Positions 15,133 through 45,559 are shown, counted from the stretch's first letter. The stretch is DNA of 64,000 nucleotides from a bacterium (GCA_040753555.1 JBFMDZ010000001.1:12693-76692); one strand, 5' to 3'. Notes: a model not told the origin generated them from the letters alone. Translations and numbers: made by a program.

Positions 15133-15286
15133 CTGTAATTCAGAAATAACGATTAAGTATGTGTTAGCTATTAGCTTTTGGCTTTTAGCGATTAGCCTTT
15201 TAAACAAGAGAAAAAATTTACAAATTTAGAGATACTTGCACCTACGAAGTGCAAATATATTTTTGCGTTTCTGCGGTAGCATGTTA

Positions 15287-19138: not shown

Positions 19139-19164
19139 CGTACGTGTTTAGCTTCGCTAAACAA

Positions 19165-19290
19165 TTGCAAATTGTAAATTGCAAATTGTAAATTTCAAAT
19201 TGAGAGAGGATGAATTTTTTATAATCATTATTTTTTTACCTCTTTAAATTTACAATTTAAAATTTGCAATTTAAAATTTACAATTCCAAA
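19165..19290. repeat. AT-rich AAATTGTAAATT-type tandem arrays in inverted arrangement. Related arrays lie at 22187-22312 and 50124-50175.
   Basis: caaattgtaaattgcaaattgtaaatt...aatttacaatttaaaatttgcaatttaaaatttacaatt. Confidence 0.7.
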
Positions 19291-19353
19291 GCTAATGGCT
19301 AAAAACAAGAGCCCGTAGCTAAACATATACTAAAGGAGCTAAACACATACCTT

Positions 19354-22137: not shown

Positions 22138-22346
22138 TGTATGTGTTAAGCTTCCTTATGCTAAAGAGCCAAAAACGCTTTCTTTAATTGTAAATTTTAA
22201 ATTGTAAATTTTAAATTGTAAATTTTTTTAAAATACAAAATCTAAATCAAAACTTCTTCATTCCTCATTTCATTTTACAATTTGCAATCTACAACTTGCA
22301 ATTTACAATTATGTTTAGCGAAGCTAAACACGTACTTTCTTTTGCT

Positions 22347-29237: not shown

Positions 29238-29293
29238 CCTGCTTTTCCCCTTCCTACTAAAGCTTCTGTAATTTAACCACAGATGAACACAGA

Positions 29294-29740
29294 TTAAATT
29301 ATTAACCTTTCATATTCTAACTTTGGCTGAGCAAAATTTAAAATTAAACCAATCCGGTAACCAGATATCCTTAAATAATTAAGTAACTGTGCTCGATGAA
29401 CATCAGTAATTGTTTCTACTGATTTCACTTCTACAATAACTTTTTCTTCAACTATCATATCAGCAACATATAACCCTACTTCTTTCTTACGATAAAATAC
29501 TTTAAATTCTTTCTGTGTTACAACTTTCTTTTCTCTGAGAGTCAATTCCCAAGTAAGCCCATTTTCGTATACTTTTTCTAATAATCCACAACCCAAGGTA
29601 TTATGTACCTGAAATGCTGCATCTAATATCTCACTAGTTAGTTCCTTATAGAGAAATTCTTGTACTTTATCTGTGTTTACCTGTGGTTTCATATCTGTGT
29701 TTACCTGTGGTTTCATATCTGTGTTTACCTGTGGTTTCAT
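29294..29740 (-). CDS. GxxExxY protein (PD-(D/E)xK superfamily). Its N-terminus is built from a 24-bp x3 tandem repeat.
   Basis: [27 protein letters not shown]-terminal MKPQVNTD x3; the start could be any of the three Met codons. Confidence 0.6.
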
Positions 29741-31706
29741 TTTTTAAGTTACAAAACCCTACTAAAGGTTTCACTACATTCATTAAATTTTGAGTATCAA
29801 GTTTATCCAAGCTATAATATTGTCCTCCACTTATCTCAGCCAGTTCTCGGTTATATCCAAGATTCAAAAAGCCACTGTTGCAATCCACAACTACTAAATT
29901 TATCCCCTGCCTTTTTATCTCTTCTCCAAGAGAGATTACCTCCTTTCTAACATCATTCCCTAAAGGAATATTTCCTCTTCCATCAGAGATTAGCACCATA
30001 ATAGGGATGATATTTTTACTCTTTCTCATCTGGCTCTTTAATATTTCCAGGCCTTTATACAGACCATCGGAAAGGGGTGTTTTACCTCCAGTAGGAAGTT
30101 CCTTAAGACAATTTGCTGCAAGCTCTTGGCTTGAAGTGGGCGGTAAAAGAACCTCAGCCCTTTCCTTTCGGAAGGCAACAAATCCTACCTTATCCCTTTT
30201 CTGATAAGCCTCTTCAAGCAAAGCCATAACTGCTCCCTTTGCCACTTCCATTCTTTGCATCGCTCCCATTGAGCCTGAAGCATCAACTACAAATACAATG
30301 GTTGAGGAAATTTTCTTCTCCCTTACCTTCTCCCTTAGGTCTTCCTCTTCTATCTGGAGACTTCCCTTTCTGATTATTGAAGCTCTCATAGTAGCATCCA
30401 CAGCAATGTCGCTTGCTTTTTCTTGTGGAATTTTAGATTTGATATACTTACCACGGCAAGAGCTTAAGGTTTTAGCTCTTCTTCCTGAACCAATCCTTTG
30501 TTTTTTATCCTTCCTTAGTTTAAATTTTAGCTTCCTTTGCTCCCCGATATCGAAAACCTTCTCTAAATTTCCTTTACTGTTATCTTGTTTGTCTTGATTT
30601 GAACTAGATTCTTGTTGCTCTTGCTGTCTGTTATCTTGATACTTGTTATTTTCCTTCTGCTTAGATTCTTCTTTTTTACCAATTATTCTCTCTATTTCTT
30701 GCCACAGCAGGGGCTGAGGTTGCTCAAATGGTTTTTTCTTCATTCGGTGAGGAAGAACAAACTCAGCTGCCTCTTTCACATCCTCTTCAGTTACCACTTT
30801 TCGCTCATTGAAAGCAGCTATAGTCTTAGCAGTTCTGGCAATAAGAAAATCAGCGCGGTGGCCGTCAACAGCAAAATTGATGCAAATCTCAGCTATTTTA
30901 CATAATAATCTCTCAGGAACTACAACCTCATTCAGCAATTCCATCGCTTTTATAATGCTTTCTCTAAGCTTTCTCTGTTTTCCCTCGTAGCGTTGAGAAA
31001 ATTGCAAAGGTGCTTTTGCAAATTCTTCCACTGTTTTTATAATCTCTATCCTTTCCTCAACTTCTCTTAGTGTTTTAACTTCCACGCTGAGCCCAAACCT
31101 ATCCAGAAGCTGTGGACGGATTTCTCCTTCCTCAGGGTTCATGGTCCCTACAAGAATGAACTTGGAAGGATGAGAAAGTGATATTCCTTCTCTCTGGATG
31201 ATGTTTATGCCCATAGCCGCCGAATCAAGCAGGATATCCACTAAATGGTCATCAAGCAGATTCACTTCATCGATGTAAAGTATTCCTTGATTTACATCAG
31301 CCAGTATGCCTGGCTGCAAAGCTTTTATCCCTTCCTTCAAAGCCTTCTCGATATCCACAGTCCCTATCACTCTATCTTCTGTGGCTCCTAAGGGAAAATC
31401 CACTACTCTCATCTTCCTCTTTTCCTTCGGGAGTTTCTCTTTTCTCCTCCATTTCTCGTTACAAATCTCACACTGAAGTGAGGGATCATGCGGGCTGCAA
31501 TTGAAAGGACATTTTACCACCTCTATCTCCGGCAGAAGCTCAGCCAATGCCCTTACCGCAGTTGACTTGGCTGTTCCTTTCTCTCCTTTAATCAAAACAC
31601 CCTGCAAGTTTGGATTTATAGCATTCAGTATTAAAGCCTTCTTTAGCTTCTCCTGCCCTACTAAAGCAGTAAAAAGCAAAACAGTTCTTTTCATATGGTG
31701 TGCCAT
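29667..31706 (-). CDS. Mg-chelatase-family ATPase, ChlI/ChlD fusion, paralog 2.
   Basis: [10 protein letters not shown]-loop and vWA domain ([12 protein letters not shown]). The C-terminal tail ETTGKHRY x3 is encoded by the same tandem repeat. Confidence 0.85.
29677..29748. repeat. Perfect 24-bp x3 tandem repeat (atctgtgtttacctgtggtttcat).
   Basis: Read directly from the sequence. It spans the chlID-2 stop and the start of the GxxExxY gene. Confidence 0.9.
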
Positions 31707-31718
31707 CTGGCTACCTTC

Positions 31719-33944
31719 CTAAAAACCTAATCTTATTTCCCCAAACCATGAGCGCCCAGGTTCCTTCCAGAAACCGAAATAGTCTTTGTCAAAGATGTTG
31801 TCTATTGAAAGAGACAATGTAGCAAACTTTTTAATCTTCCAAGAGACCTTTGTATCAGCTACAAAATGAGGATCATAAGAAGTATAGATATTGTTTACTG
31901 TATCTTTGTTCTCATCTGTTGCATAAATTTTACTCATATATCGGCCGGTTAGACTTGCGGAAAAAGGCCCTTTTTCAAACTCTGTCCCTACATTAAACAT
32001 CTTCTCAGGCATAAAGGTTAGTCTTTTGCCAACTGTCGCAGGTTTTGCTTCATTCTCTTTTATCTTTGCATCATTATAAGTAAAGTTGGAAAAAACCTTA
32101 AGCCACTTATCAAATTTTTGTTCTACCTCAAGCTCTAAACCTTTACCCTCTGCCTTACCAACATTTATATACTCTTGATAGGTAGGGCTAACTGTCTTTA
32201 AGTAGATGAGATCATCCATCTTGTTCTCAAAATAGCTAATCCCTATTTTTGCACCCTTCCATAAGTCCTGTTTAACCCCAACATCCCAGGAAAAAGTTGT
32301 CTCTGGTTTTAAGTCAGGATTTCCCGCATAAGTAACATTTCTCAATGATGTCCATGTCTTATAGAGCTCAGAAATTGTTGCTGATCTGAATGCTTTGCCA
32401 ATAGATGTTCGTAAAGTAGTTTTTTCAAATGGTTTATAGACAAAGGCAGCCTTTGGACTAAAGGATGATTTCTCTCTTGGGTCATAGTATTTTGGATAAC
32501 CACTGATGCCTACCTGATTTACATAGCCATCATAGGTCTTCCACCAGTCCTGCCTGAACCCAAGATAAGCAGTAAGATTTTCACGAAGAACTATCTCATC
32601 CTGCAAAAACAAGGCATATGTTCTGTCTTTTCCCTTTGATTGATAAGTAAGTTCAGTCTTTGACTCCTTATCCTTCCAGTTTGTAAGATTGTAATCCTTT
32701 GAGTCTGCCCATCCCTGTCTAAATGAGCCACCAAAGGTAAGGATGTGCCTTCCAAAGACAGGGGAAGTGAATTGAAGATCTATGTTATAGCTTTCACATG
32801 GGGTCTCTGTGACCTTACCCGGCCCACCTGCTCGGGTTGCTGTATCAGAAGGCACTGTATTCCAATATTTTTCCCGATCAACCAACCCAAGGGTCAGTTT
32901 TGTCTTGAAAGAAGATATCTTTGTTTCGCAAGTTAGGTTATAATTGTTTTGTTCTGTGCCTAATGAACCGGAAAGAAATGAAGACTCATTTACAGTTTTT
33001 GTTTTAGTTCCAATTACAGTTACATATGACCAGACTGGATTTCCGGCTGCATCTTTAAGATATGTCTTGGGGTTATCATAGTTGTATTCGAAGCCGATTC
33101 TATGAAATGAGAAATTAATCTTTGATGCTTTGCTAAAGTCATACCCTGTCTTGAAGGTAAAATTTTTATCCCACCAGCTGTTGTCTCCTTTGTCTCCAAT
33201 TAAGTAGCAAGTGTTCCCTCCTCTATCTTTGGTCTCTGTCCATCCAGTGATATTTGCAGGAGGTTTGATCCCTACCACACTAAGATCTGTGGGATAACCT
33301 TTGGTTGCCTTATATCCATAACTTAAAAAGAGGCTCAATTTGTCTTTTAACTTATCAGCGTAAGAGAAATAAAGGTTTCCTAAATCATCCATAGCTTCTC
33401 CTCTATTCCAGCCTGAGCCATAGCCACTTTTGAGAAAAAATTCTCTCTTTTCTGGCATCTTGGTGATGATATTTACTACCCCTCCCATGGCATAACCGCC
33501 ATAGAGGCTTGAAAATGGACCTTTAACCACCTCAATCTTTTCTATATCCTCTGGCGCTAAGCCAGCAAAACGGACACTACCAGAGTAAGCATCATTGAGA
33601 GGAATACCGTCCATTAAGATTAATGTTCTATCTTGTGACGGGAATCCCCTCAAAGTAACCTTAGCGATACTATCCATAAGTCCTTTAGTTCGCTTGCTAT
33701 AGACACCAGGAACCATATTCAATGCCTCATCAACTGCTTTAATATTTCTTTTTTCCATATCCTTTTTCTTAACCACAGATGTAGATGCTGGCACTGCCTC
33801 TATTTCCTTCTCTACCCTTGTAGCCGTAACCACTATCTCTTCACCATAGATGGTAAGGACTGACTCCTCTCTCTCTTCAGCCTCAAGAGTTGAGGTCAAG
33901 CCCAACACCAAGATATTTACCCCCAAAAGTATCCTTCTTAACAT
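31719..33944 (-). CDS. TonB-dependent outer-membrane receptor.
   Basis: Signal peptide, plug domain (IVVTATR...), 741 aa, C-terminal ...RLGF terminal Phe. Confidence 0.85.
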   Translation of the reverse strand: MLRRILLGVNILVLGLTSTLEAEEREESVLTIYGEEIVVTATRVEKEIEAVPASTSVVKKKDMEKRNIKAVDEALNMVPGVYSKRTKGLMDSIAKVTLRGFPSQDRTLILMDGIPLNDAYSGSVRFAGLAPEDIEKIEVVKGPFSSLYGGYAMGGVVNIITKMPEKREFFLKSGYGSGWNRGEAMDDLGNLYFSYADKLKDKLSLFLSYGYKATKGYPTDLSVVGIKPPANITGWTETKDRGGNTCYLIGDKGDNSWWDKNFTFKTGYDFSKASKINFSFHRIGFEYNYDNPKTYLKDAAGNPVWSYVTVIGTKTKTVNESSFLSGSLGTEQNNYNLTCETKISSFKTKLTLGLVDREKYWNTVPSDTATRAGGPGKVTETPCESYNIDLQFTSPVFGRHILTFGGSFRQGWADSKDYNLTNWKDKESKTELTYQSKGKDRTYALFLQDEIVLRENLTAYLGFRQDWWKTYDGYVNQVGISGYPKYYDPREKSSFSPKAAFVYKPFEKTTLRTSIGKAFRSATISELYKTWTSLRNVTYAGNPDLKPETTFSWDVGVKQDLWKGAKIGISYFENKMDDLIYLKTVSPTYQEYINVGKAEGKGLELEVEQKFDKWLKVFSNFTYNDAKIKENEAKPATVGKRLTFMPEKMFNVGTEFEKGPFSASLTGRYMSKIYATDENKDTVNNIYTSYDPHFVADTKVSWKIKKFATLSLSIDNIFDKDYFGFWKEPGRSWFGEIRLGF

Positions 33945-34075
33945 TTTTTTACCTCCTTTTATGTTACTTTTTTAAAATTCATGCTACCAAAAGTCTACCA
34001 AAAAAATTTATCTCATGTCAATAAAAATTTATTACCTTTTTAAAATTCGTGCTACTTAAAAGAAAAAAAATATCC

Positions 34076-34495
34076 TCATACTATCTCTTCCCCTGTAGTA
34101 GCCATACTCAGACTGCCGTATTTTACCCCTTTGGTGGACTTCAGTCTAAAAGCAAGTCTCTCTACTTCTTTAGGCATACCTTTAACTGCAATTATCTCCA
34201 AGCAATTATTATGATCTAAATGGATATGTTGTGATGAAAGGATAAGTTTATGCTCCCCATGTTGAATATCTGTTAACTTATTCACTAACTCTCTTCGGTG
34301 GTGGTTATAGACAAGGACAACTGCTCCACCTACTTCCCTTTCATCGGTCATCCACTCGCGCTTTACCAAACTCTCCCTTATTAAATCCCTTATTGCCTCT
34401 GAGCGGTTAGGATAATCCTTCTCTTCAAGCAGTCTATCAAATTTAGTCAGGAGTTCTTTATCAATTGATATCCCAAAACGAACCAACTGCGACAT
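34076..34495 (-). CDS. nikR: Nickel-responsive transcriptional regulator NikR.
   Basis: Ribbon-helix-helix N-terminus (RFGISIDKELL...NRSEAIRDLIR) and C-terminal metal-site residues (HIHLDHNNCLEI). Full-length alignment to E. coli NikR. Confidence 0.85.
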   Translation of the reverse strand: MSQLVRFGISIDKELLTKFDRLLEEKDYPNRSEAIRDLIRESLVKREWMTDEREVGGAVVLVYNHHRRELVNKLTDIQHGEHKLILSSQHIHLDHNNCLEIIAVKGMPKEVERLAFRLKSTKGVKYGSLSMATTGEEIV

Positions 34496-34570
34496 AAGTC
34501 AGACCTCTTTTATAATATTACTTTTATAAAAATAGTAGCACAAGCTTTAAAGAAATGTCAAGCAAAATTT

Positions 34571-34638
34571 TTGCAATGTTTAGTTACAATAATAAAATGT
34601 TAATCTTTTTGAAAAAGCAATCACAAGAAAGAATAATA
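34571..34638 (+). promoter_or_regulatory. Candidate sigma70-type promoter(s) for hdrA. The nikR leader lies on the opposite strand.
   Basis: TTGCAA-16-TAAAAT at 34571-34598 and TTGAAA-17-AATAAT at 34610-34638. Confidence 0.25.
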
Positions 34639-34709
34639 ATTATTGCCAAAAACACCATCTTATTTTAAACTTTATTCTTAAAAAATGGCAAGGATTGGTG
34701 TATTTGTTT
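34628..34709. repeat. Diverged direct repeat, copy B. It contains a truncated mreD start (MVFLAIIII...stop on the minus strand) and the intact hdrA start.
   Basis: Matches 15056-15132. Confidence 0.8.
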
Positions 34710-36655
34710 GTCATTGCGGTGTAAATATTTCTGGGATTGTTAATTGTCCTTCTGTAGCAAGCGAATTGCTTAAAATCCCAGGGGTTGTTTATACAAGGGA
34801 TTATCAATATATGTGTTCCTTGCCAGGACAATCCTTAATAAAAGAGGCAATAAAGAATTATGGGCTTAACAGAATTGTTGTCTCTGCCTGCTCTCCAAGA
34901 ATGCATGAAGAGACATTTAGAAATTGCATAAGCGAAGCAGGTCTTAATCCATATCTTTTTGAAATGGCAAATATAAGGGAGCAATGCTCCTGGGTTCATC
35001 AGGATAAAGAAAAGGCAACCAAAAAGGCAATTGAGCTTACAAGGATGGCTGTTTTTAAGGTAGCTAAAAATATCCCATTGACTAAATTGAAGGCAGGTGT
35101 TTGCAAGAAGGGATGTGTTATTGGCGGTGGAATTGCAGGGATTCAGGCAGGATTAGATTTGGCAAATGCTGGAATTTCTACAATAATTGTAGAGAGAACG
35201 CCCTCCATCGGTGGAAAGATGGCTCAGCTTGACAAGACATTCCCAACCCTTGATTGCTCTGCCTGTATTCTAACCCCAAAGATGGTTGAGGCCTCAAGGC
35301 ACAAAAACATAAAGATTTATACATATTCTGAGATTGAAGAGGTCTCTGGCTTTATGGGAAACTTTAAGGTTAAAATAAGAAAAAAAGCAAGGTCAATTGA
35401 TGAAAGTAAATGCACAGGTTGCGGCTTGTGCCTTGAAAAATGCCCTGTAAAGATTCCATCAGAATTTAATATGGGTTTAGGAAATAGGGGTGCAATATAC
35501 ATTCCATTCCCACAGGCTGTTCCAAGGATTCCTACAATTGACCGGGAAAATTGTCTATATTTCACAAAGAAAAGGTGTGGCTTGTGCAAAAAAGCCTGTG
35601 ATAGAGATGCAATTAACTATTATCAGGAAGATGAGATAATCACAGAGGATGTAGGAGCAATCATTGTTGCAACAGGGTTTTCCTTGTTTGACCATTCTGT
35701 TTATGGAGAATATGGGGGAGGAAGATTTAAGGATATTCTCTCTTCCCTCTCCTTTGAAAGGCTTATAAATGCATCTGGTCCTACAAAAGGACACATAAAA
35801 AGGCCATCAGATGGGAAAGAGCCAAAATCCGTTGCATTTATCCAATGTATTGGTTGTAGGGATGATGCAAAAGGCATTTCATATTGCGGAAGGTTTTGCT
35901 GTATGTACACCGCAAAACAGGCAATTCTTTTAAGAGAACATATCCCAGATTGCAAGGTTCATATTTTTTATATTGACATAAGGGCAGCTGGAAAGGGGTA
36001 TGAGGAGTTTGTAGAGAAGGCAAGGACAAAATATGGGATTTCATATATCAGGGGAAGGGTATCTAAGATTTATCAAAAAAAGGATAGGCTTGTTGTAAAG
36101 GGTGCGGATACATTGGCAGGCATTCCATTAAGTGTTGAGGTAGATATGGTTGTTTTGGCAAACGGTGCTATTCCACAAAAGGATTCAAAGACCCTAGCCC
36201 AAATTTTAAAAATCCCTTATGATGAATATGGCTTCTTTACAGAATTACATCCAAAGCTAGCACCCTCTGAAACAACAACCGGAGGCATATTTCTAGCTGG
36301 CTCTTGCCAATTCCCAAAGGATATTCCCGATTGTGTGCAATCTGCAGGAGCAGCATCCTCTAAGGCAATCTCCCTTGTTTCAAAGGATTCCCTTGAAATA
36401 GAACCTGTGATTTCCAGGGTAAATCCTGAATTTTGTAAAGCCTGCTTTAGCTGTATTGATGTTTGTGCATATTCTGCAATTGAGAAACAAGAAATAAAGG
36501 GAAGGGTATCAGCAAAGATAAACCCTGCCCTATGCCATGGCTGTGGCTCTTGCTTATCCATATGCAGATGCTCTGCCATAAGCCTGGATGGATTTTCATC
36601 TTTTAGCATATTCAATCAGATTGAGGCATTAAGTGAAATGTATGAAGGGTTTTAA
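34685..36655 (+). CDS. hdrA: Heterodisulfide reductase subunit A-like flavoprotein.
   Basis: MARIGVFVCHCGVNISGIV N-terminus, FAD-binding GGGIAG, multiple ferredoxin-type Cys clusters, 656 aa. Confidence 0.9.
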   Translation: MARIGVFVCHCGVNISGIVNCPSVASELLKIPGVVYTRDYQYMCSLPGQSLIKEAIKNYGLNRIVVSACSPRMHEETFRNCISEAGLNPYLFEMANIREQCSWVHQDKEKATKKAIELTRMAVFKVAKNIPLTKLKAGVCKKGCVIGGGIAGIQAGLDLANAGISTIIVERTPSIGGKMAQLDKTFPTLDCSACILTPKMVEASRHKNIKIYTYSEIEEVSGFMGNFKVKIRKKARSIDESKCTGCGLCLEKCPVKIPSEFNMGLGNRGAIYIPFPQAVPRIPTIDRENCLYFTKKRCGLCKKACDRDAINYYQEDEIITEDVGAIIVATGFSLFDHSVYGEYGGGRFKDILSSLSFERLINASGPTKGHIKRPSDGKEPKSVAFIQCIGCRDDAKGISYCGRFCCMYTAKQAILLREHIPDCKVHIFYIDIRAAGKGYEEFVEKARTKYGISYIRGRVSKIYQKKDRLVVKGADTLAGIPLSVEVDMVVLANGAIPQKDSKTLAQILKIPYDEYGFFTELHPKLAPSETTTGGIFLAGSCQFPKDIPDCVQSAGAASSKAISLVSKDSLEIEPVISRVNPEFCKACFSCIDVCAYSAIEKQEIKGRVSAKINPALCHGCGSCLSICRCSAISLDGFSSFSIFNQIEALSEMYEGF

Positions 36656-37583
36656 GATACTTATTTTTATTATAGTTTTTATAGGTTGTGGATTTTTATT
36701 TCCAGTTATTAAATTCCCTCTTAAGAAAGAGAAATTTCTTATAGGAGAAAAGAAATATCTTCTTATTGCCACGGTTATTAAAGAGCATAATATAGATATT
36801 CAGCATAGAAGTGAGAAAAGCAAAGAAAAAATCCTAAAAAATACAATTTATAAGGTTAGATTAGGCGATACACTTTGGTCAATTTCAAGGAAGTTTGGGT
36901 TGAATGTTTCTACAATCATTAGTGTGAACAATATAGCAAGCAATATTATAAGAGAGGGAATGGAAATTAAAATTCCAAGCCAAAATGGTATTCTCTATAA
37001 GATAAAATCTAAAGATACACTTTTAAAGATTGCAAGGATATATAATGTTTCATTAGAAAAGATAATTGAAGCTAATGGCTTAGCTAACACAACTATTCGG
37101 GAAGGAAAGACAATCTTTCTTCCGTGTGCAAAATTACCAGAAAAACCCCAAATATTTTGTGCCAACAAAAACCATCAATCTAAACCCTCTCTTGTCTTTA
37201 GTAAGGAAGATATTGGTAATTGTGAGATTGTAAAGATTGCTTGTAGCTTTCTAAATATTCCATACAAATATGGAGGAATGAGTAATAACGGTATTGATTG
37301 CTCAGGATTTGTAAAGATTGTATTTGGTCAATTGGGTGTGTCTCTTCCTAGAACAGCATCTTCTCAGTTTAAAGAAGGGTCTTCTGTTAAAGAATTACAA
37401 CCAGGCGACCTTCTGTTTTTTGCTAGAAAAGGAGATATTCCTTCCCATGTTGGTATCTATATGGGAGAGGGAAGGTTCATCCATGCATCCTCTGGAAGAG
37501 AAAAGAAGGTGATAACAACAGAGCTTAATAAATACACCCAAAGATTCATTGGAGCAAAAAGGATTTTTTATGAAAATTTATAG
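36633..37583 (+). CDS. Cell-wall hydrolase: LysM repeats plus NlpC/P60 peptidase.
   Basis: Three LysM motifs (YKVRLGDTLWSISRKFG..., YKIKSKDTLLKIARIY...). NlpC/P60 catalytic region (GIDCSGFV...HVGIYMGEGRFIHAS). Confidence 0.8.
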   Translation: MKCMKGFKILIFIIVFIGCGFLFPVIKFPLKKEKFLIGEKKYLLIATVIKEHNIDIQHRSEKSKEKILKNTIYKVRLGDTLWSISRKFGLNVSTIISVNNIASNIIREGMEIKIPSQNGILYKIKSKDTLLKIARIYNVSLEKIIEANGLANTTIREGKTIFLPCAKLPEKPQIFCANKNHQSKPSLVFSKEDIGNCEIVKIACSFLNIPYKYGGMSNNGIDCSGFVKIVFGQLGVSLPRTASSQFKEGSSVKELQPGDLLFFARKGDIPSHVGIYMGEGRFIHASSGREKKVITTELNKYTQRFIGAKRIFYENL

Positions 37584-38646
37584 ATTGGGATTATTTTTAG
37601 TAATCCCAGCATTTTTTATTGAAACCACCACCCTTTTTTCCCAAGATGCAATTTCAGAAACAAAGGAGTTAAAATCTCATTCCTTTCTAATTAAAGGAAC
37701 TAAATCGCTTATAGAGCTAAAAAGAAAAATTGGAAGCAAGGGGATGCTTGTTGTTTTAAAGATTAACAGAATAGATGAAAAACATATTAAGGCTGGAAAT
37801 AGCATTATTGTTCCTGATACTTTTGACAATATCCTTGATTTTTCACCTTTTCCTTTTTATATTGAAGAGCTTGTGGAAGTAGAAAAATTGCTTCTTGTGT
37901 CAATTCAAAATCAGGCATTTGCTGCCTATGAATTTGGCAAGCAGGTTTGGTGGGGACCTGTAAGCACGGGAAAAAAGGATACACCAACACCCACTGGCCT
38001 TTATTGGACAAACTGGAAGTCAAAAAAGAAAAAAAGCACCTCTAATCCCGAATGGATACTAAATTTTTACTTTAATATTGAGAACAAAAGGGGAATTTCT
38101 TTTCACCAATTTGCCCTTCCAGGCTATCCTGCAAGTCATTCCTGTATCCGTATGCTTTCCGAAGACGCCCAATGGCTTTATAATTGGGCAGAAGAATGGA
38201 GCCTTTCAAAAAATGGCTGGTCTATCCTTTCATACGGAACACCAGTTATTATTTTTGGTGAATATTCCTATGAAGAAGGAACACGATCTGTAGGTTTTCC
38301 TTTAGAAACAGATACAACAACCATTAAATCTGAAATTAAAGAATGGTTTGGATTAAAACCAATCTTGGAAAAAGTAATGGGTACGGATACAATTTATCCT
38401 GTGTTCTATTTTAATACAAAACCTGGAATTAAATCTTTAGAATTAGAAATATCAAAGGATTCCTCATTTGGTAGTTTAACTTATTCTGCACATCTACCAT
38501 CTATGACAGGAAGTTATACATTAACAGAAACAATCCTTCCTCCTGGTAAATGGTATTCTCGAATAAAGGGCATTACACCAAAATTTCCTCCTGTTTACTC
38601 TAATATAGTTATGTTTGAGATTGTTCCAAATAGAAATGATGAATAA
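37549..38646 (+). CDS. L,D-transpeptidase (YkuD domain) protein.
   Basis: FHQFALPGYPASHSCIRM catalytic motif. Signal/TM N-terminus. Confidence 0.7.
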   Translation: MEQKGFFMKIYRLGLFLVIPAFFIETTTLFSQDAISETKELKSHSFLIKGTKSLIELKRKIGSKGMLVVLKINRIDEKHIKAGNSIIVPDTFDNILDFSPFPFYIEELVEVEKLLLVSIQNQAFAAYEFGKQVWWGPVSTGKKDTPTPTGLYWTNWKSKKKKSTSNPEWILNFYFNIENKRGISFHQFALPGYPASHSCIRMLSEDAQWLYNWAEEWSLSKNGWSILSYGTPVIIFGEYSYEEGTRSVGFPLETDTTTIKSEIKEWFGLKPILEKVMGTDTIYPVFYFNTKPGIKSLELEISKDSSFGSLTYSAHLPSMTGSYTLTETILPPGKWYSRIKGITPKFPPVYSNIVMFEIVPNRNDE

Positions 38647-38873
38647 TAGATGCTCAACACAAAAGATGTAATGAACACGACAAGCACAACTTTTTTAAGT
38701 AAATTACAGTTATAACCTAAAGATATTATAAAATTCTAAATACATAAGCACTTTATAAATGCAAAATGTAAAACGAAAAATGCAAAACTTATGGTAAGGA
38801 TTCAATAAAATGCAATGATTACCATGGATGGATTTTCATCTAATGGATTATTTCATCAGATTGAGAAATCCTG

Positions 38874-38902
38874 TTGACAGAGGATTATTCCAATGGTATA
38901 TT
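38874..38902 (+). promoter_or_regulatory. Sigma70-type promoter for the Uma2-family gene.
   Basis: TTGACA (38874-38879), 17-nt spacer, TATATT (38897-38902). RBS aaaggaggt before the ATG at 38952. Confidence 0.4.
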
Positions 38903-38951
38903 TATTTTAGTAATGAAAGGGTGAGATAAATTCTAAAAGGAGGTATTATTT

Positions 38952-39536
38952 ATGGGTCTTCTGGCAAGAAAAATAAAAGAACGATTCACTTATGAAGATT
39001 ATCTGAAATGGTCAGATGAAGAACGATGGGAACTGATAGATGGAGTAGCTTATGATATGAGCCCCTCTCCTTCAAGAAGGCATCAGAAGGTAGTAGGTAA
39101 TATATTTGCTGAATTCCATAATTATTTAAAAAACAAACCTTGTGAGGTGTATCTTGCCCCTTTTGATGTCCGATTGCCAGAGGCTGATGAGGCAGAGAAA
39201 GAGATAGAAACCGTGGTTCAACCAGATATTGTGGTTGTTTGTGAGCGGAATAAACTTGATGATCGTGGATGTATCGGTGCTCCGGATATCATTATAGAAA
39301 TCTTATCTCCCTACACCGCCAAAAAAGACCTTATCACCAAATATCATCTATATGAAAGGCATAAAGTTAAACAATATTGGATATTTGACCCAGCCACAGA
39401 GGAGGTGGTTATATTTAAACTTAAACAGGATAAGTATGGAAAGCCTGAAGAATATAAAAAACAAGAGGGGATAAAAGTGGACATCTTTGAAGATTTAAAA
39501 ATAGATTTAAACACCATATTTTCCTCTGGAGAATAA
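38952..39536 (+). CDS. Uma2-family (DUF820) putative restriction-endonuclease-like protein.
   Basis: WELIDGVAYDMSPSPSRRHQ, the Uma2 signature. Confidence 0.75.
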   Translation: MGLLARKIKERFTYEDYLKWSDEERWELIDGVAYDMSPSPSRRHQKVVGNIFAEFHNYLKNKPCEVYLAPFDVRLPEADEAEKEIETVVQPDIVVVCERNKLDDRGCIGAPDIIIEILSPYTAKKDLITKYHLYERHKVKQYWIFDPATEEVVIFKLKQDKYGKPEEYKKQEGIKVDIFEDLKIDLNTIFSSGE

Positions 39537-39607
39537 AAATAAATTTTAAAGATTAAACCAACAAATGCTACCATTATGGATACTATCTGAAGGATTATTT
39601 CATCAAA

Positions 39608-40030
39608 TTGAGTGATATGAAAGAACCTAAAATTATTGCATTTTTATGTAATTGGTGCACATATGCGGCATCTGACCTTGCTGGGACATCTCGGCTAAAA
39701 TACCCTGAAAATATAAGGATAATCAGGGTTCCCTGTTCAGGGAGGATAGATTTTCTTCTAATCCTCAAAGCCTTTAAGGAGGGTGCTGACGGAGTTATGG
39801 TCTCTGGTTGCCATCCAGGTGATTGCCATTATGTATCGGGAAATTATTATGCAAGGAGGAGGTTTGCAATACTCGCAAGACTTCTTGAATTTATGGGTAT
39901 AGAAAAGGAAAGGCTACAATTTTTTTGGATATCAGGGGGAGAGGGTGTAAAATTTGCAGAAAGCGTTTCTAAAATGGTAGAGGAAATAAAAAGGCTTGGC
40001 CCATTTGAGGGATTTAAGGATGAAAAATAG
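39608..40030 (+). CDS. mvhD: MvhD/FlxD-like protein (methyl-viologen-reducing hydrogenase delta-subunit family).
   Basis: MKEPKIIAFLCNWCTYAASDLAG...VSGCHPGDCHY. Likely ATG start at 39617. Confidence 0.85.
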   Translation: MSDMKEPKIIAFLCNWCTYAASDLAGTSRLKYPENIRIIRVPCSGRIDFLLILKAFKEGADGVMVSGCHPGDCHYVSGNYYARRRFAILARLLEFMGIEKERLQFFWISGGEGVKFAESVSKMVEEIKRLGPFEGFKDEK

Positions 40031-40538
40031 CTTGGTTCCCATTGAAAGAATAGAGGGCAAGATTCTTGTGATAAGAAATAAAAAGGTGATGTTAGATAAA
40101 GATTTGGCAGAGCTTTATGGAGTAAAAACATCTGCGTTAAAACGGCAGGTCAATAGAAATATAGAAAGATTTCCAGAAGATTTTATGTTTCAACTGACAA
40201 AGGAAGAGCTTGAAAACTTGAGGTGCCATTTTGGCATATCAAGTTGGGGTGGAGTTAGACATCTTCCTTATGCCTTCACAGAGCAGGGTGTTGCTATGCT
40301 ATCCTCTGTGCTTAATAGCAAAATGGCAGTTAAAGTAAATATCCAGATTATGAGAGCCTTTGTAAGGTTAAGGGAAATGGTCTTAAGCAATGAGGAATTA
40401 AGGAAAAAGGTTGAAAATATGGAGAAAAAATATGACCAGCAATTTAAGATTATCTTTGATGCCATAAAGGGTATATTATCCACCCCTGTTTCTAATATAA
40501 AGAAAATAGGATTTAGAGAAAAAAATGGAAATAAGTAA
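39996..40538 (+). CDS. ORF6N-domain protein, associated with mobile elements and phage.
   Basis: VMLDKDLAELYGVKTSALKRQVNRNIERFPEDFMFQLTKEE. Likely start MKNSLVPIE at 40020. Confidence 0.65.
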   Translation: MAHLRDLRMKNSLVPIERIEGKILVIRNKKVMLDKDLAELYGVKTSALKRQVNRNIERFPEDFMFQLTKEELENLRCHFGISSWGGVRHLPYAFTEQGVAMLSSVLNSKMAVKVNIQIMRAFVRLREMVLSNEELRKKVENMEKKYDQQFKIIFDAIKGILSTPVSNIKKIGFREKNGNK

Positions 40539-41328
40539 ATTAGCATATGAATTATTGGAAAAAGGCGATATTTCCTTAATTATTGGCTATGAAGAAAATA
40601 ATGGAATAGTATCTCCCTGTTTTATTAAGGATAAAGAGGATACCAAAAGGCTTATCTTTAATGATAAGTGCTTTCATAACCTCTCTGTTTATTTAACAAA
40701 AATGAAAGAAAGGGTTGGAATTATCGCAAAGGGTTGTGATATAAGGTCTATAATTGGTCTTGTCCAGGAAAATCAGATAAAGAGAGAGGATGTTGTAATA
40801 ATTGGCATTGCTTGCCCTGGCTTAAATTTAAAAAAATGTAGCTCTTGCCCTGACAAAAATCCAAAATTTTATGATTACTTAATTGGTGAAAAACAAGAAG
40901 AAATCAAAGGAGATAAATTTTCTGAGGTAATTGAGATAGAGAAAAAAAACCCAAAGGAGAGATGGAATTATTTTAAAAATGAATTTAGCCGATGTATAAG
41001 GTGCTATGCCTGCCGGCAAATTTGTCCCCTTTGTTATTGCGAAACCTGTATTGTGGATGTAAGCATTCCACAATGGATTTCAAAGGCTAATTCAAGCTCA
41101 TCCAATTTTCTCTTTCACATAACAAGGGCATTGCACCTGGCAGGAAGGTGCGTTGGTTGCGGAGAATGCGAGAGGGTCTGTCCAATGAAGATTCCCTTGA
41201 GCCTCCTAAATCTAAAGATAGCAAATGATGTATTAGAGCTATTTGACTACAAAGCAGGAGAAGATGTAAATCTCAAGCCTCCACTTCAGGAATTTAAAAA
41301 AGATGACTACAATGAATTTATTGGATAA
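40525..41328 (+). CDS. 4Fe-4S cluster protein (sulfhydrogenase-beta/AsrA/FlxC-like).
   Basis: CIRCYACRQICPLCYC and CVGCGECERVCP motifs. Confidence 0.5.
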   Translation: MEISKLAYELLEKGDISLIIGYEENNGIVSPCFIKDKEDTKRLIFNDKCFHNLSVYLTKMKERVGIIAKGCDIRSIIGLVQENQIKREDVVIIGIACPGLNLKKCSSCPDKNPKFYDYLIGEKQEEIKGDKFSEVIEIEKKNPKERWNYFKNEFSRCIRCYACRQICPLCYCETCIVDVSIPQWISKANSSSSNFLFHITRALHLAGRCVGCGECERVCPMKIPLSLLNLKIANDVLELFDYKAGEDVNLKPPLQEFKKDDYNEFIG

Positions 41329-42274
41329 GAAGGATTTAAAGGGTTTTATTGAGGAACTAAAAAAGGAGGCAGATGTTTTTGCTCCCTTTTCTTCTGATGG
41401 GCTTATTTTCTTTAAAGAAATTAAAGATAAGATGCCTGAATTTACCTATCTCAATACCACTATTCCCCTTAAATCCCTATTTCTTCCCCAAACAGAAGAA
41501 TTATTAAGATTTAATATAAAAAAGGATGGTATTGAAATTACAGAATCGCCGCCAGATAATAAAAAAAGGATAATCATTGGGTGCAGGCCTTGCGATGCAA
41601 AGGCTTTAAACATCCTTGATAAGGTCTTTTTGGATTTTCCAGAGGATTCTTTTTATAAAAAAAGGAGGGAGAATACGATAATCATAAGCCTTCTATGCAA
41701 AGAGCCAGACAAAACCTGCTTTTGCACATCTTTTGGCTATGATATGTCTTGTGGCAGCGATATTTTAATGGCTGAAGATGGCAATAATTATTATTTTGAG
41801 CCAATAACCGAAAAAGGGAAGGCAATTGTTCCTGATGGATCAGGGATTAAGGATCAGGGCTTAGGGATTAGAACAAAGACCCACATTTCTTTAGATAATC
41901 TTTCGCTCTCATTTAATTCACCAAAATGGGAAGAAATTTCTTTAAAATGCCTCGGCTGTGGGATTTGCACCTACCTTTGTCCAACCTGTTATTGCTTTGA
42001 TATTGCTGATGAGAAAAATAGCCGTTTTAGATGCTGGGATTCCTGTGCCTTTGCTTTTTTTACAAAAATGGTAGCCCATCAGCCAAGAAAGGAACAATTC
42101 CAAAGGTTTAGAAATAGAATAATGCATAAATTTTCATATTTTAAGGAGAGATTCGGCGAATATGCCTGTGTTGGCTGCGGAAGGTGCATAAGGCATTGCC
42201 CTGTTTCTATGGATATTTTAGAGGTAATTGAGAAGTCAGGAGTCAGGAGGAAGAGATCAGGAGTCAAGGGGTAA
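41303..42274 (+). CDS. 4Fe-4S cluster protein (AsrA/HydB/FlxB-like).
   Basis: CLGCGICTYLCPTCYC and CVGCGRCIRHCP motifs. The C-terminal tail is encoded by the GAGTCAGGAGG junction repeat. Confidence 0.55.
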   Translation: MTTMNLLDKKDLKGFIEELKKEADVFAPFSSDGLIFFKEIKDKMPEFTYLNTTIPLKSLFLPQTEELLRFNIKKDGIEITESPPDNKKRIIIGCRPCDAKALNILDKVFLDFPEDSFYKKRRENTIIISLLCKEPDKTCFCTSFGYDMSCGSDILMAEDGNNYYFEPITEKGKAIVPDGSGIKDQGLGIRTKTHISLDNLSLSFNSPKWEEISLKCLGCGICTYLCPTCYCFDIADEKNSRFRCWDSCAFAFFTKMVAHQPRKEQFQRFRNRIMHKFSYFKERFGEYACVGCGRCIRHCPVSMDILEVIEKSGVRRKRSGVKG

Positions 42275-43082
42275 AATGGAAAATATATATAGACCAAAGG
42301 TTTTGGAGATTATTGAGATATTTAAGGAAACACCTGATATCAAGACATTCAGGCTTGGTGCGGATATTTCCTATATGCCGGGTCAATTTGGGCTATATTC
42401 TGTATTTGGTGAGGGAGAGGCTACATTTTGCATTGCCTCATCGCCTACCCAAAAGGGTTATATTGAATGCACAGTAAAAAGAATAGGGAAGGTTACAGAT
42501 GCCTTACATAGCCTTGATGTAGATGATAAGATTGGTTTTAGAGGACCATATGGCAATTCATTTCCTATTGATGTGCTTAAAGGAAAAAATCTATTGTTTA
42601 TTGGCGGTGGGATTGGATTAGCACCCCTTCGTTCTTTGCTCTTATATTGCCTGGACAAAAGGGAAGATTTTGGCGAAATAACCTTGCTTTATGGAGCAAG
42701 GAGCGTGAATGACCTGGTTTATAAGAGAGAGCTTGAGGAATTAAAAGAAAAAATAAACCTTGTTTTAACCGTTGACCCTGGTGGAGAAAAAGAGGGTTGG
42801 ACTGGAAAAATAGGCTTTGTTCCAAAGGTATTGGAGGAATTATCTTTAAAGGCAGAAAATTGTTTTGTTATTACCTGTGGGCCTCCTATAATGATAAAAT
42901 TTGTTTGTGCTTCATTAGAAAATCTTGGATTTTCAGAGGATAAAATTATAACAACCCTTGAGATGAAGATGAAATGTGGGATTGGCAAATGTGGAAGGTG
43001 TAATATTGGAAAAACCTATGTCTGCAAGGATGGCCCTGTATTCAGCCTGAAGGAGATAAAGGAGATGCCAGATGAATTCTAA
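42228..43082 (+). CDS. FAD/NAD(P)-binding oxidoreductase with C-terminal 2Fe-2S cluster (PyrK/HydG/AsrB/FlxA-like).
   Basis: FRGPYGNSF, LLFIGGGIGLAPL, CGIGKCGRCNIGKTYVCKDGP. Probable true start MENIYRPKV at 42276. Confidence 0.65.
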   Translation: MRSQESGGRDQESRGKMENIYRPKVLEIIEIFKETPDIKTFRLGADISYMPGQFGLYSVFGEGEATFCIASSPTQKGYIECTVKRIGKVTDALHSLDVDDKIGFRGPYGNSFPIDVLKGKNLLFIGGGIGLAPLRSLLLYCLDKREDFGEITLLYGARSVNDLVYKRELEELKEKINLVLTVDPGGEKEGWTGKIGFVPKVLEELSLKAENCFVITCGPPIMIKFVCASLENLGFSEDKIITTLEMKMKCGIGKCGRCNIGKTYVCKDGPVFSLKEIKEMPDEF

Positions 43083-44223
43083 TATAATCCTTGGAATAAC
43101 GGGAAGCATTGCCGCATATAAGGCTTGCGAGCTTATAAGAGCTCTTAAAAGCCTAGGATGTAATATTCATCCTGTAATGACAAGACAGGCCAAGAAATTT
43201 ATCAGTCCACTTACAATTGCAACCCTGTCAGAAAACCCTGTAGCGATAAAGCCCTCATTCCACATCGAGCATATAAAAAAATGCGATTTGATAATTATTG
43301 CACCTTGCACAGGAAATATTATAGGAAAAATTGCACAAGGCATCGCAGATGATCTCTTAACAAGCATTGCTTTGGCAATGAAAGCACCTCTTTTGATTGC
43401 ACCAGCAATGAATGAGGGGATGTATCTAAATCCTATAACACAAAGGAATATTAAGATTTTGAAGGAGAACGGCGTAATTATAATAGAGCCAGAAAAGGGG
43501 AAATTGGCAAAAGGTGAAGGTTATGGAAGGCTTGCTGATGTTGATGTAATAGTTAAGGAGGCAATGTCTCTTCTTGAAATAAGCAAAATTGCCTCTTTAA
43601 AAAAGGTTTTAATAACAGCAGGTGGAACAATTGAACCAATAGACCCGATAAGGTTTATCTCAAATCGCTCATCAGGTCTTATGGGGCATTCCCTGGCAAG
43701 CAGATTTTCTTTATTTGGAGCCGATGTAAGCCTAATAACCACAACAGATATTCCTACTCTGTCATCTATAAAAAGATACCAGGTAAAAACAGCCTCTGAT
43801 ATGAAAAAAATGGTTGATGAATTATTTGATAATTGCGATATTTTTATCTCAACCGCCGCTGTTTGTGATTTTAAGCCAGAGAAAAAAGCAAAAGAGAAAA
43901 TAAAGGATAAAGAAATTACCTTAAAACTTACAAGAAATCCTGACATTTTAAAGGGGGTTGGAAAAAGAAAAAAGCATCAAAAAATTATTGGATTCTCTGT
44001 TGATACGGAAAATAGAGAAGATAATGCAAAAAAGAAATTAAAAGAAAAAAACCTTGATATGATTGTTCTTTGCACAATTGATGATATGGGAAGAGAAACA
44101 ATCATCCCAAAAATCCTTTACAAGGATGGAAACATTGAGGAATTTAGCGAAATCTCAAAAACAGAATTTGCCACCTGCCTTATTAAAAGAGTCTGGGGGT
44201 CAGAGGGTCTAAAGAGTCTATGA
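43072..44223 (+). CDS. coaBC: Bifunctional phosphopantothenoylcysteine decarboxylase / phosphopantothenate-cysteine ligase.
   Basis: ILGITGSIAAYKACELIR flavoprotein N-terminus and the ligase C-half. Confidence 0.85.
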   Translation: MNSNIILGITGSIAAYKACELIRALKSLGCNIHPVMTRQAKKFISPLTIATLSENPVAIKPSFHIEHIKKCDLIIIAPCTGNIIGKIAQGIADDLLTSIALAMKAPLLIAPAMNEGMYLNPITQRNIKILKENGVIIIEPEKGKLAKGEGYGRLADVDVIVKEAMSLLEISKIASLKKVLITAGGTIEPIDPIRFISNRSSGLMGHSLASRFSLFGADVSLITTTDIPTLSSIKRYQVKTASDMKKMVDELFDNCDIFISTAAVCDFKPEKKAKEKIKDKEITLKLTRNPDILKGVGKRKKHQKIIGFSVDTENREDNAKKKLKEKNLDMIVLCTIDDMGRETIIPKILYKDGNIEEFSEISKTEFATCLIKRVWGSEGLKSL

Positions 44224-44933
44224 CAGAAGTAAGGATTTTTAGGACAATTGGCTTAAAAGAGGATAGGATAAAGAGGACATTAGAGGATATTACAAAATGG
44301 GGAAAGGCTGTATCCATTGGGCTTAAAAGCACAGGGTTTGGCGTTGATATAGAGCTTATTGTCTCATCAGATAATGAGGCTGTGGCTTCCTCACTAACAA
44401 AGTCTGCATCTGATAATATAAAAAAGCGCCTCGGTGATTCTATATATGGGACAAGCAACGATGAGACATTAGAAAAGGTTTTAGGCTACATCCTTTACCT
44501 TAAAAAGCTTACACTAGCCATTGCTGAGTCTTGCACAGGTGGCTTTGCCTCACATCTCATTACAAATGTTTCAGGGGCATCATCTTATTTTAAGGGTGGA
44601 ATAATCGCTTATGCCAATGAGATAAAGATAGGTCTCCTTGGGGTTTCAAAAAAGACAATAGAAAGATATGGTTCGGTTTCCAAAAAAACAGCAGAAGAAA
44701 TGGCTATTGGTGTAAAAAAGGTCTTTAATGTAGACCTAGGGCTTTCAATTACAGGGATTGCTGGTCCTTCTGGAGGAAGCCAGGAAAAACCAATTGGTCT
44801 TGTTTATATTGGTTTAGCAAGGCAGGATGAAATAATTGTAAAAGATTTCTTGTTTTCTGGGGAAAGGGAACAAATAAAAGAACAAGCCTCTTACTATGCC
44901 ATTGATTTGGTAAGAAGAACCCTCATTAGATAA
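44220..44933 (+). CDS. CinA C-terminal domain (PncC-like) protein.
   Basis: LAIAESCTGGFASHLIT...SYFKGGIIAYANEIK. Confidence 0.7.
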   Translation: MTEVRIFRTIGLKEDRIKRTLEDITKWGKAVSIGLKSTGFGVDIELIVSSDNEAVASSLTKSASDNIKKRLGDSIYGTSNDETLEKVLGYILYLKKLTLAIAESCTGGFASHLITNVSGASSYFKGGIIAYANEIKIGLLGVSKKTIERYGSVSKKTAEEMAIGVKKVFNVDLGLSITGIAGPSGGSQEKPIGLVYIGLARQDEIIVKDFLFSGEREQIKEQASYYAIDLVRRTLIR

Positions 44934-44952
44934 GACACATACCCTCATTTTT

Positions 44953-45312
44953 TTAACCAGAAGCAACCATACTTTTTCCAAAAAGCCTTTCCATAAATTC
45001 CCTTCTCATTTCCTCTTGAACACCCTCAAGTTTGGATAGCCTTTGTGATAAATCAAGCTTTGTGTTTATCTGTCTTAAATCCTCTCTTACAAGTGACAAT
45101 TCTTTAAAAACTACCTCAAATCTTTTATTTGTTTCTTCCCTTGTCTCTTTCATTTCAGCAATTAACATCTCAAATCTTTTGTCAACCTGCTCAAATCTTT
45201 CGCTATGCTCCTTTAAGATAACACTATGCTCCTTTAAGGTATCCTGAATAACCCTTAACTCAGGAACCAAGATTTCCTGTAAAACCTTTCTTAATCCCTC
45301 AACAATGTTCAT
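44953..45312 (-). CDS. Hypothetical coiled-coil protein.
   Basis: 119-aa ORF, Glu/Lys/Arg-rich heptads. Confidence 0.3.
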   Translation of the reverse strand: MNIVEGLRKVLQEILVPELRVIQDTLKEHSVILKEHSERFEQVDKRFEMLIAEMKETREETNKRFEVVFKELSLVREDLRQINTKLDLSQRLSKLEGVQEEMRREFMERLFGKSMVASG

Positions 45313-45313
45313 T

Positions 45314-45511
45314 TTACTCTTCCTGACCTACAACACCCAATCTTTTTCTATAATTTATTATAAGCTCAATTAGTTTGTCAAGTGGCTCTTTGACCACATA
45401 CTTTTGTCCTGAGTTTAGGGTGACTACAGTATCTGGGGTTTCTTCGATTATCTCTATTTGATGGGGGTTTAGGGCAAAGGTTTGACCATTAAGTCTCGTA
45501 AGAATAATCAT
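45314..45511 (-). CDS. flbD: Flagellar protein FlbD.
   Basis: MIILTRLNGQTFALNPHQIEIIEETPDTVVTLNSGQKYVV. Confidence 0.7.
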   Translation of the reverse strand: MIILTRLNGQTFALNPHQIEIIEETPDTVVTLNSGQKYVVKEPLDKLIELIINYRKRLGVVGQEE

Positions 45512-45559
45512 TTATCAACCAACGACAGCTTTAACTATGAACTATGAACTATGAACTAA

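Follow-up and report, generated by a model that had tools for sequence, protein, structure and literature searches.

Integrative elements can accrete in tandem at the 3' terminus of a protein-coding gene, as do the integrative and conjugative elements (ICEs) ICESt1 and ICESt3 and cis-mobilizable elements (CIMEs) at fda of Streptococcus thermophilus, and integrase-less members exist among elements of this type. Displacement of gene ends of another kind, called C-terminal displacement, is known from rhs genes and from effector-immunity clusters of the type VI secretion system (T6SS; Jackson et al. 2009; Kirchberger et al. 2017, PMC5361080). New tips with their cargo enter the end of the conserved gene there, and older tips are pushed downstream as orphans (PMC5361080). 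Homologous or homology-facilitated illegitimate recombination was proposed as the cause (PMC5361080), and for the latter process in natural transformation that paper cites de Vries and Wackernagel (2002), Prudhomme et al. (2002), and Meier and Wackernagel (2003). The present analysis concerns the hdrA-mvhD operon in a 64,000-nt stretch of a metagenome-assembled genome (MAG; GCA_040753555.1 JBFMDZ010000001.1:12693-76692), hereafter the window, in which coordinates count from the first letter. In this window hdrA and mvhD are separated by two blocks of genes bounded by copies of the hdrA 3' end, and the arrangement appears, on balance, to be the product of two stacked insertions by homology-driven recombination at the hdrA end, i.e., of 3'-end displacement.

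For comparison, loci around HdrA homologues were fetched from one genome per species and from Joint Genome Institute (JGI) metagenomes. The JGI scan with HdrA gave no relative above 60% identity, and the close comparisons therefore rest on six short contigs. The closest relative is L002, and two sister genomes, found by a search with the Uma2 protein, are L167 (GCA_040756715.1; HdrA 88% identical in amino acids, aa) and L169 (GCA_040757735.1; HdrA 90%). An independent Logan assembly of SRR29635778 provided contigs L170 and L001. The gene order in the window is hdrA, LysM-NlpC/P60, YkuD, a 161-nt spacer, c2, promoter, Uma2, c3, and mvhD, with c1, c2, and c3 denoting the three copies of the hdrA end:

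34685-36655, plus strand: hdrA, 656 aa, full length (Pfam; 86-90% aa identity to L002, L167, and L169)
36568-36625, plus strand: c1, the hdrA 3'-end copy in current use (attL-like), with core 36585-36601
36602-38841, plus strand: LysM-LDT block (LDT, L,D-transpeptidase), absent from L167 and L169 (empty-site comparison; independent assembly L170)
36642-37583 (alternative start 36633), plus strand: peptidoglycan hydrolase with two LysM domains and NlpC/P60 (Pfam; gene call in L170)
37570-38646 (alternative start 37549), plus strand: YkuD-family LDT (Pfam; exact product in L170)
38808-38865, plus strand: c2, stranded hdrA end, attR-like for the LysM-LDT block and attL-like for the Uma2 block
38874-38902, plus strand: sigma-70-like promoter of the Uma2 block, conserved in L167 and L169
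38952-39536, plus strand: Uma2-family PD-(D/E)XK endonuclease gene (Pfam)
39567-39612, plus strand: c3, decayed relic of the ancestral hdrA end with small deletions (compare the canonical junction of L084)
39617-40030, plus strand: mvhD (FlpD), first gene of the displaced operon remainder (Pfam; synteny in 155 loci)

Together, c1, c2, and c3 form the top-ranked repeat family of the region. Shifted by 2,240 nt relative to one another, c1 and c2 match in register at 38/48 positions (maximum of 30/48 in 200 shuffles), and c2 and c3 at 25/28 (null maximum 21), or over 46 nt when aligned with two small gaps. The three copies reported in an earlier note on this DNA are therefore real repeats by pairwise alignment, exceeding the shuffle maxima and lying close to the coordinates given there, and the genes between them are also those it had named: a LysM-NlpC/P60 and LDT pair, then an Uma2 gene with its own promoter (Pfam; promoter match 11/12). 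This promoter, TTGACA-17-TATATT with a TG extension, is the top-scoring match of the region; the -35 box shares bases with the stop codon that closes the frame of c2. The exact 17-mer TGGATGGATTTTCATCT is common to c1 (36585-36601) and c2 (38825-38841, core 1), and the exact 14-mer GGATTATTTCATCA, which taken alone is not significant, to c2 (38845-38858, core 2) and c3 (from 39592). Each block is thus bounded by direct repeats with an identical core, of 17 nt for LysM-LDT and 14 nt for Uma2. Derivation of c2 or c3 from one another via a shared non-hdrA flank was considered and rejected (local alignment P ~0.97).

The ancestral state is preserved in 155 related loci, among those holding the hdrA 3' end, in which mvhD is found directly 3' of hdrA, as the earlier note had expected of typical loci. 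The median spacing between alignment ends is 18 nt (above 200 nt in 2 loci), and Fe-S, Fer4_22, and FAD/NAD genes usually come next after mvhD. In L084, a 71%-identical relative, the hdrA stop overlaps the mvhD start (...EIEVI and stop; ATATGA). In the window, c3 encodes ...SEGLFHQIE followed by a stop, and a single base (T) lies between this stop and the mvhD ATG at 39617, which identifies c3 as a remnant of the canonical hdrA-mvhD junction. An intermediate state is found in L167 and L169. Their intact hdrA ends in ...LDGFSSNGLFHQLEKSC and stop, which is the c2 sequence, and is directly followed by the same TTGACA/TATATT promoter and by Uma2 (the window protein is 95% identical in aa to the L167 copy and 90% to the L169 copy). 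Accordingly, c2 corresponds to the hdrA end still working in the sister genomes, and positions 4405-4445 of L167 align to both c1 and c2. On the 3' side of Uma2, the window, L167, and L169 are wholly different from ~11 nt past the stop, and c3 with mvhD occurs in the window only; mvhD of the sister genomes lies on other contigs, behind recG (L165) and behind an unrelated gene (L166), and no hdrA relic was found 5' of mvhD in either. The relics stand in order of age with the youngest next to hdrA, c1 and LysM-LDT being present here only and c2 and Uma2 in three genomes. What comes after ...QIE(A) is different in each of six close relatives. With the ancestral state in 155 loci and the intermediate one in L167 and L169, the earlier proposal that the hdrA 3' end received two insertions in succession is upheld.

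The insertion of the LysM-LDT block can be followed base by base. Compared with the empty site of L167 and L169, the window has exactly 2,240 additional bases between two identical 17-mers, in the order replacement hdrA tip, LysM-NlpC/P60, YkuD, 161-nt spacer, short hdrA-like arm, and core. The hdrA codons up to 36601 are orthologous to those of the sisters, and the final 18 (36602-36655, ...FSIFNQIEALSEMYEGF and stop) are block-borne. The left flank of c1 resembles the sister genomes, with 2 differences from L169 in the 70 nt left of the core on by-eye reading of the alignment; its right arm (TTTAGCATATTCAATCAGATTGAGGCATTAAG...) is new and matches the right arm of c2 at 17/24 positions. From its core rightward, c2 is 96.5% identical to L167 over 724 nt (~96% to L167 and L169), and its left arm (...AATGCAATGATTACCA) matches the window's own hdrA at 5/12 positions and the L002 hdrA allele at 8/12 (P ~0.01). 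Read together, this left arm, the core, and the right arm of c1 give one continuous diverged hdrA end, ITMDGFSSFSIFNQIEALSEMYEGF and stop. Under uniform drift, a perfect run of 17 bases has P = 0.002-0.008 in frames of 58-71 nt and 0.075 in a 48-nt frame. Since its stranding c2 has changed very little, so that neither the right arm of c1 nor the left arm of c2 is a decayed duplicate; the alignments place both arms in the inserted block. Both switches of similarity flank the same 17-mer, a pattern that marks a single reciprocal crossover inside a short identical core, and a target duplication created at insertion is effectively excluded for this event. What these comparisons establish is the succession of states, the block boundaries to the base, and the presence of arms brought in by the block. 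They also reverse the assignment of c1 as the native hdrA end: its distal half, from 36602, came with the block, c2 serves the sisters, and the ancestral end is c3, still attached to mvhD. The related idea that each insertion regenerated its target holds in so far as hdrA was kept intact and an end copy stranded; it does not hold as a target-site duplication, since the LysM-LDT block carries hdrA-end sequence of its own. No donor or second location of LysM-LDT was found in the 170 fetched loci or in viral contigs, and the joined attP-like 30-mer expected of a circular form had no match in viral contigs. The LysM-NlpC/P60 protein has a lipoprotein-like signal, its gene start overlaps the new hdrA tail, and its PHROG matches are generic lysin domains.

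What follows about the recombining enzyme, the donor, and the form in which the DNA arrived is inferred from this record. The ancestral hdrA-mvhD operon would have been opened twice by recombination inside the final ~20 hdrA codons, with incoming DNA bringing a substitute hdrA tip and pushing the earlier tip downstream. In the older step, common to the two sister genomes, the promoter-bearing Uma2 gene would have been placed directly after ...QIE, and 46 nt of the old hdrA end (c3) would have remained attached to mvhD and then decayed. In the later step, the 2,240-nt LysM-NlpC/P60 and YkuD block would have entered by one reciprocal crossover within the 17-nt identity, the partners being the chromosomal hdrA end and the hdrA-end-like sequence on the block (Campbell-type or unequal homologous recombination). 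The block may have come from a circular intermediate, or from a donor or sister chromosome in which it already stood before an hdrA-end relic. As a result, hdrA would now take its last codons from the block (c1), and the end that it had before, c2, would be stranded 5' of Uma2. The likely agent is the general recombination of the host, acting on DNA exchanged among closely related lineages, because the blocks encode no recombinase. Exchange of this kind is evident from hdrA of L167 and L169, in which tracts of 95-100% identity alternate with patches of 62-80%, a mosaic showing that these lineages exchange DNA by homologous recombination. The drop in identity between the window and L002 at the hdrA 3' end was considered as a sign of an imported tract and is uninformative, as all pairs drop there.

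The locus shares with rhs and T6SS displacement arrays an anchor gene, block-borne tips, age-ordered orphans, and the lack of an integrase. It differs from them in that the anchor is the gene of a housekeeping redox enzyme and not a polymorphic toxin, and in that an operon was split; the displaced tips are functionless pieces of 46-58 nt, and the cargo consists of cell-wall enzymes and an Uma2 nuclease instead of toxin/immunity pairs. Homology-facilitated illegitimate recombination, as cited in PMC5361080, is similar in having one homologous anchor and no element-encoded enzyme. It differs in the LysM-LDT event, where the block is joined at each side right at the same 17-mer and its distal arm resembles hdrA, for which reason the second joint looks homologous (misaligned) rather than illegitimate. 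Integron cassette arrays likewise have promoter-less or small cassettes in one orientation with recombination-site-like repeats between them; here, in contrast, the repeats are coding 3' ends without a hairpin, there is no attI or intI, and only two cassettes are present. When searched for attC-like hairpins, c1, c2, and c3 folded no better than shuffles (z = -0.18, -0.29, and +0.25). The phenomenon is a known kind of recombinational insertion, well preserved, and its mechanism is not surprising.

Two further junctions in the window resemble that of hdrA-mvhD, as had been noticed before, with repeats of ~100 nt at mreD/hdrA and ~630 nt at ftsK:

15053-15132, plus strand: mreD 5' end, intergenic region, and first 8 hdrA codons, left copy, at the left border of a 19.5-kb island
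34629-34708: right mreD/hdrA copy, at the right border of the island (15133-34628)
56472-56970, plus strand: ftsK' relic behind hicBA, compared with 55075-55705

In the closest relative, L002, mreD and hdrA are adjacent. In the window ~100 nt of mreD-5'/intergenic/hdrA-5' sequence flanks the island on both sides; the left copy is nearly identical to L002, and the right copy is diverged, with an mreD' relic common to L167. The island holds two paralogous modules of CobN/ChlD-like chelatase and ABC uptake genes, a TonB receptor, and NikR. The left end of the island cuts cobN, leaving a truncated cobN' (15287-16021) with only the C-terminal 224 residues, and the island is thus no tidy element. 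At the other junction, hicB and hicA lie directly 3' of ftsK (55851-57085), and ~630 nt of ftsK are stranded behind them. This relic is 85% and then 95-96% identical to 55075-55705, has an internal deletion of 135 nt, and lost the gamma domain. The hicA/ftsK' joint has a possible 13-nt microhomology, the near-match ATTTAAAGAGCT / ATTTAGAGAACT, which is a further likeness to illegitimate recombination as cited in PMC5361080. Since the repeat lengths of these parallel junctions differ greatly from each other and from that at hdrA, homology is favored over one specific site. Near the mreD junction, a gene for a DUF4143 AAA ATPase (11547-12770) encodes a protein with 95-97% aa identity to L002, the neighbors mrdA, mreD, and hdrA having 86-88%; the identities suggest a recent exchange of this gene.

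Some observations weigh against homology-driven displacement at hdrA. For recombination of the RecA type, 17 nt of identity is little. The cores of the two events, although distinct, are neighbors inside the same ~45 nt, and the relics both begin close to one position in hdrA, which could instead mean a site-specific system. A donor with hdrA-LysM-LDT, or a circular form, is missing from the fetched loci and the viral contigs. With the window, L167, and L169 about equidistant (88.6-89.9% nt), one precise loss of the block via the cores in an ancestor of L167 and L169 is as parsimonious as one gain in the lineage of the window; the same recombination is implied either way. Finally, the evidence for the Uma2 event is thinner than that for the LysM-LDT event, and a duplication at insertion followed by decay is possible for this older step.

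Site-specific integration with tandem accretion is doubtful, if far from negligible. The hdrA 3' end would be the attB of an integrase encoded elsewhere, and the blocks would be integrase-less CIME-like elements with an attP mimicking the hdrA end. Such a system would account for the identical-core direct repeats around each block, for the replacement gene end, for the clustering of both events and relic starts just mentioned, for the hotspot after ...QIE(A) in six close relatives, and for occupied and empty states that differ exactly core-to-core, as in reversible att recombination. The attL-element-internal att-element-attR layout and the restored 3' end of the target are those of ICE/CIME accretion. 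Unlike in such accretion, no integrase is nearby, the blocks measure only 0.7 and 2.2 kb, and the repeats vary from 17 to ~630 nt across the parallel junctions, those of ~100 and ~630 nt having no motif in common. The cores also differ between the events (36585-36601 vs the equivalent of 36605-36618). A Pfam search of all open reading frames (ORFs) of at least 90 aa found no integrase, serine recombinase, or transposase domain in the blocks, the 19.5-kb island, or the rest of the 64 kb, and no tRNA gene or Rfam family that could serve as an integration target is present in the window. Selection, in turn, can account for the hotspot: with the stop of hdrA directly against the start of mvhD, only insertions at the very tip spare both genes. 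Insertion of a transposon or insertion sequence was rejected: apart from the missing transposase, the block ends have no terminal inverted repeats (TIRs), and the flanking similarity is no short exact target duplication, being imperfect over 46-58 nt and including block-borne arms. Duplication of the target at insertion, by filling of a staggered break or by replicative template switching that leaves hdrA close to its end and re-enters ~50 nt upstream, followed by drift, is improbable as a general account. Template switching does yield flanking direct repeats of 45-60 nt, and in the case of Uma2, c3 has retained ancestral characters (GAA and CCATTA, also present in L002 and L082) alongside small deletions, which is the look of a decaying duplicate. 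In the LysM-LDT event, however, the stranded c2 has hardly drifted (~96% vs the sisters' working end), the left arm of c2 and that to the right in c1 are mismatched with their partners at 30-60% of positions, similarity changing abruptly at either edge of the 17-mer, and the aberrant copy is the selected c1, opposite to what drift predicts.

Homing, in which the Uma2 protein would cut the hdrA end and its gene would copy itself in by break repair, is very improbable. It would fit the position of Uma2 directly 3' of hdrA in three genomes with all-different downstream flanks, the third-codon-position identity between the window and L167 (94.9% in Uma2, 78.0% in hdrA), and an Uma2 homologue (81% aa) in an unrelated context with similarity confined to the ORF. 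But homing does not leave duplicated target ends, and it would leave the LysM-LDT, hicBA, and island cases unexplained; the lineages being recombination mosaics, a tract of high identity is unremarkable, and for this reason the synonymous divergence of Uma2, lower than that of hdrA, was not used as evidence of cassette mobility. The literature on Uma2 yielded nothing about mobility, and to our knowledge no activity is known for the family. An assembly chimera of strain variants with the hdrA end in common is scarcely credible, and assembly artefacts in general are unlikely, even though the source is a MAG and the independent Logan contigs stop at 38751 and 39116, so that only 38752-39115 is without a second assembly. 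The c1 and c3 junctions are each reproduced at 99.96% identity or better, 36233-38751 at 99.96% in L170 and 39116-50030 at 99.98% in L001; within the gap, the c2-promoter-Uma2 part (from 38825) is contiguous in L167 and L169. The longest identical run among the hdrA-end copies is 17 bases, less than the k-mer lengths that assemblers normally use, and a k-mer mis-join is unlikely because the exact words common to the copies are too short. The left arm of c2 is, in addition, unique and does not belong to hdrA of any known strain. In exact-protein look-ups, HdrA and Uma2 had no match, and MvhD and LDT matched contigs of the same sample only. A bolder proposal, which we regard as a long shot, is that a dedicated trans-acting system in this Desantisbacteria-like lineage moves integrase-less cassettes with mimics of target termini into hdrA and other gene ends, and that Uma2-type PD-(D/E)XK nucleases may be part of its machinery. 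If true, this would be a new form of cassette mobility that reshuffles operons while the target genes stay intact.

A 20-mer in the spacer between LDT and c2 had been put forward as a possible element terminus that recurs at the hicBA/ftsK' border:

38732-38751, plus strand: 20-mer AATTCTAAATACATAAGCAC, a repeat fragment without TIR
57273-57506, plus strand: palindromic repeat of 234 nt resembling a miniature inverted-repeat transposable element, with TIR TTGTAYGTGTTTAGCT (fold z = -5.6)

The recurrence is genuine, with exact copies at 38732 and 57334 and 0.01 matches expected by chance. The second copy (57334-57353) lies ~60 nt inside the palindromic repeat, which has 29-nt TIRs with 79% complementarity, and thus marks neither an element terminus nor an insertion border. 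The first copy begins 85 nt past the LDT stop and ends 73 nt before the c2 core, and contig L170 ends exactly at it, as expected for a repeat. Judged from these alignments, the 20-mer at 38732 is a fragment of an interspersed palindromic repeat and not a block end. The terminal motif of the repeat, TTGTATGTGTTTAGCT(AAT), is also found at 7292-7310 (minus strand), 22115-22133 (plus strand), and ~15157, at 1900 in L165, and at 2320 in L167. Several synteny breakpoints have a repeat copy or a single terminus beside them, among them the border of the 19.5-kb island on its left side and the regions 5' of mvhD in L165 and 5' of hdrA in L167. Other long intergenic hairpins, AT-rich and with 14-nt periodic words (AATTGCAAATTGTA...), are present at 19163-19299, 22172-22310, and 50120-50170 and are candidates for bidirectional terminators or for a further repeat family.

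The remainder of the displaced operon continues from mvhD with an ORF6N gene and then the genes of an Fe-S protein, a Fer4_22 protein, and an FAD/NAD protein. The ORF6N (anti-repressor-like) gene at 40020-40538 overlaps mvhD on one side and the Fe-S subunit gene on the other. The gene is common to L166 (10404-10922), broken into pieces in L165 (2537-2955), and absent from L084, and tblastn of more distant relatives gave no match. Its 3' end was considered as an echo of the mvhD end (GGATTTAAGGATGAAAAATAG vs GGATTTAGAGAAAAAAATGGA, ~20 nt), which is too short and weak to call, and the IGF of this similarity may be native in ORF6N proteins. In L166 (MAG236), a short ORF, MKIVLAYSGGLDV..., is located just 5' of mvhD at 9924-9970; presumably it corresponds to the first codons of argininosuccinate synthase, and it may be another gene start stranded at a synteny break. 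Heptanucleotide runs of (GGAGTCR)n occur at 42233-42267, 51560-51594, and 52692-52726 and in L166 at ~12640-12675. They form the C-terminal tails of two unrelated gene products, the Fer4_22 protein and shikimate dehydrogenase, and one is inserted inside serS; the Fer4_22 orthologue of L166 ends in (GGGGTCA)4, and L165 is without the run.

Elsewhere in the window, three perfect tandem units of 24 nt are present at 29668-29740, where a chlD-like gene ends and a PD-(D/E)XK_3 gene starts, and encode MKPQVNTD three times at the N-terminus of one protein and ETTGKHRY three times at the C-terminus of the other. The Endonuclease V ORF at 10294-10593, which has DUF1828 and unknown ORFs as neighbors, matches only positions 104-197 of a profile of 198 and is probably a broken gene. 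The regions 2714-3865, 7439-8602, and 45560-50104 include a Schlafen/AlbA_2 ATPase, a fused DarT-macrodomain protein (DarTG-like), and an unusually long FlgE hook protein of 1,514 aa. The window starts with five to six tandem repeats of 99 nt (1-571).

The locus is an unusually legible record of the break-up of an operon, with the ancestral state in 155 loci, the intermediate state in two sisters, and the stacked state here, and the stranded gene ends are its time-ordered footprints. Such relics are annotation traps, giving short spurious ORFs and extended gene tails, and they also mark points at which MAG assemblies are prone to break. At the same time, they allow earlier gene orders to be reconstructed, as with c3 by mvhD, the 8-codon hdrA' by mreD, and ftsK' behind hicBA. 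If the favored reading is right, 3'-end displacement is not confined to the polymorphic toxin loci from which it has so far been described; in an uncultivated lineage it also reshapes an operon of core energy metabolism, that of the HdrA-MvhD electron-bifurcating module.

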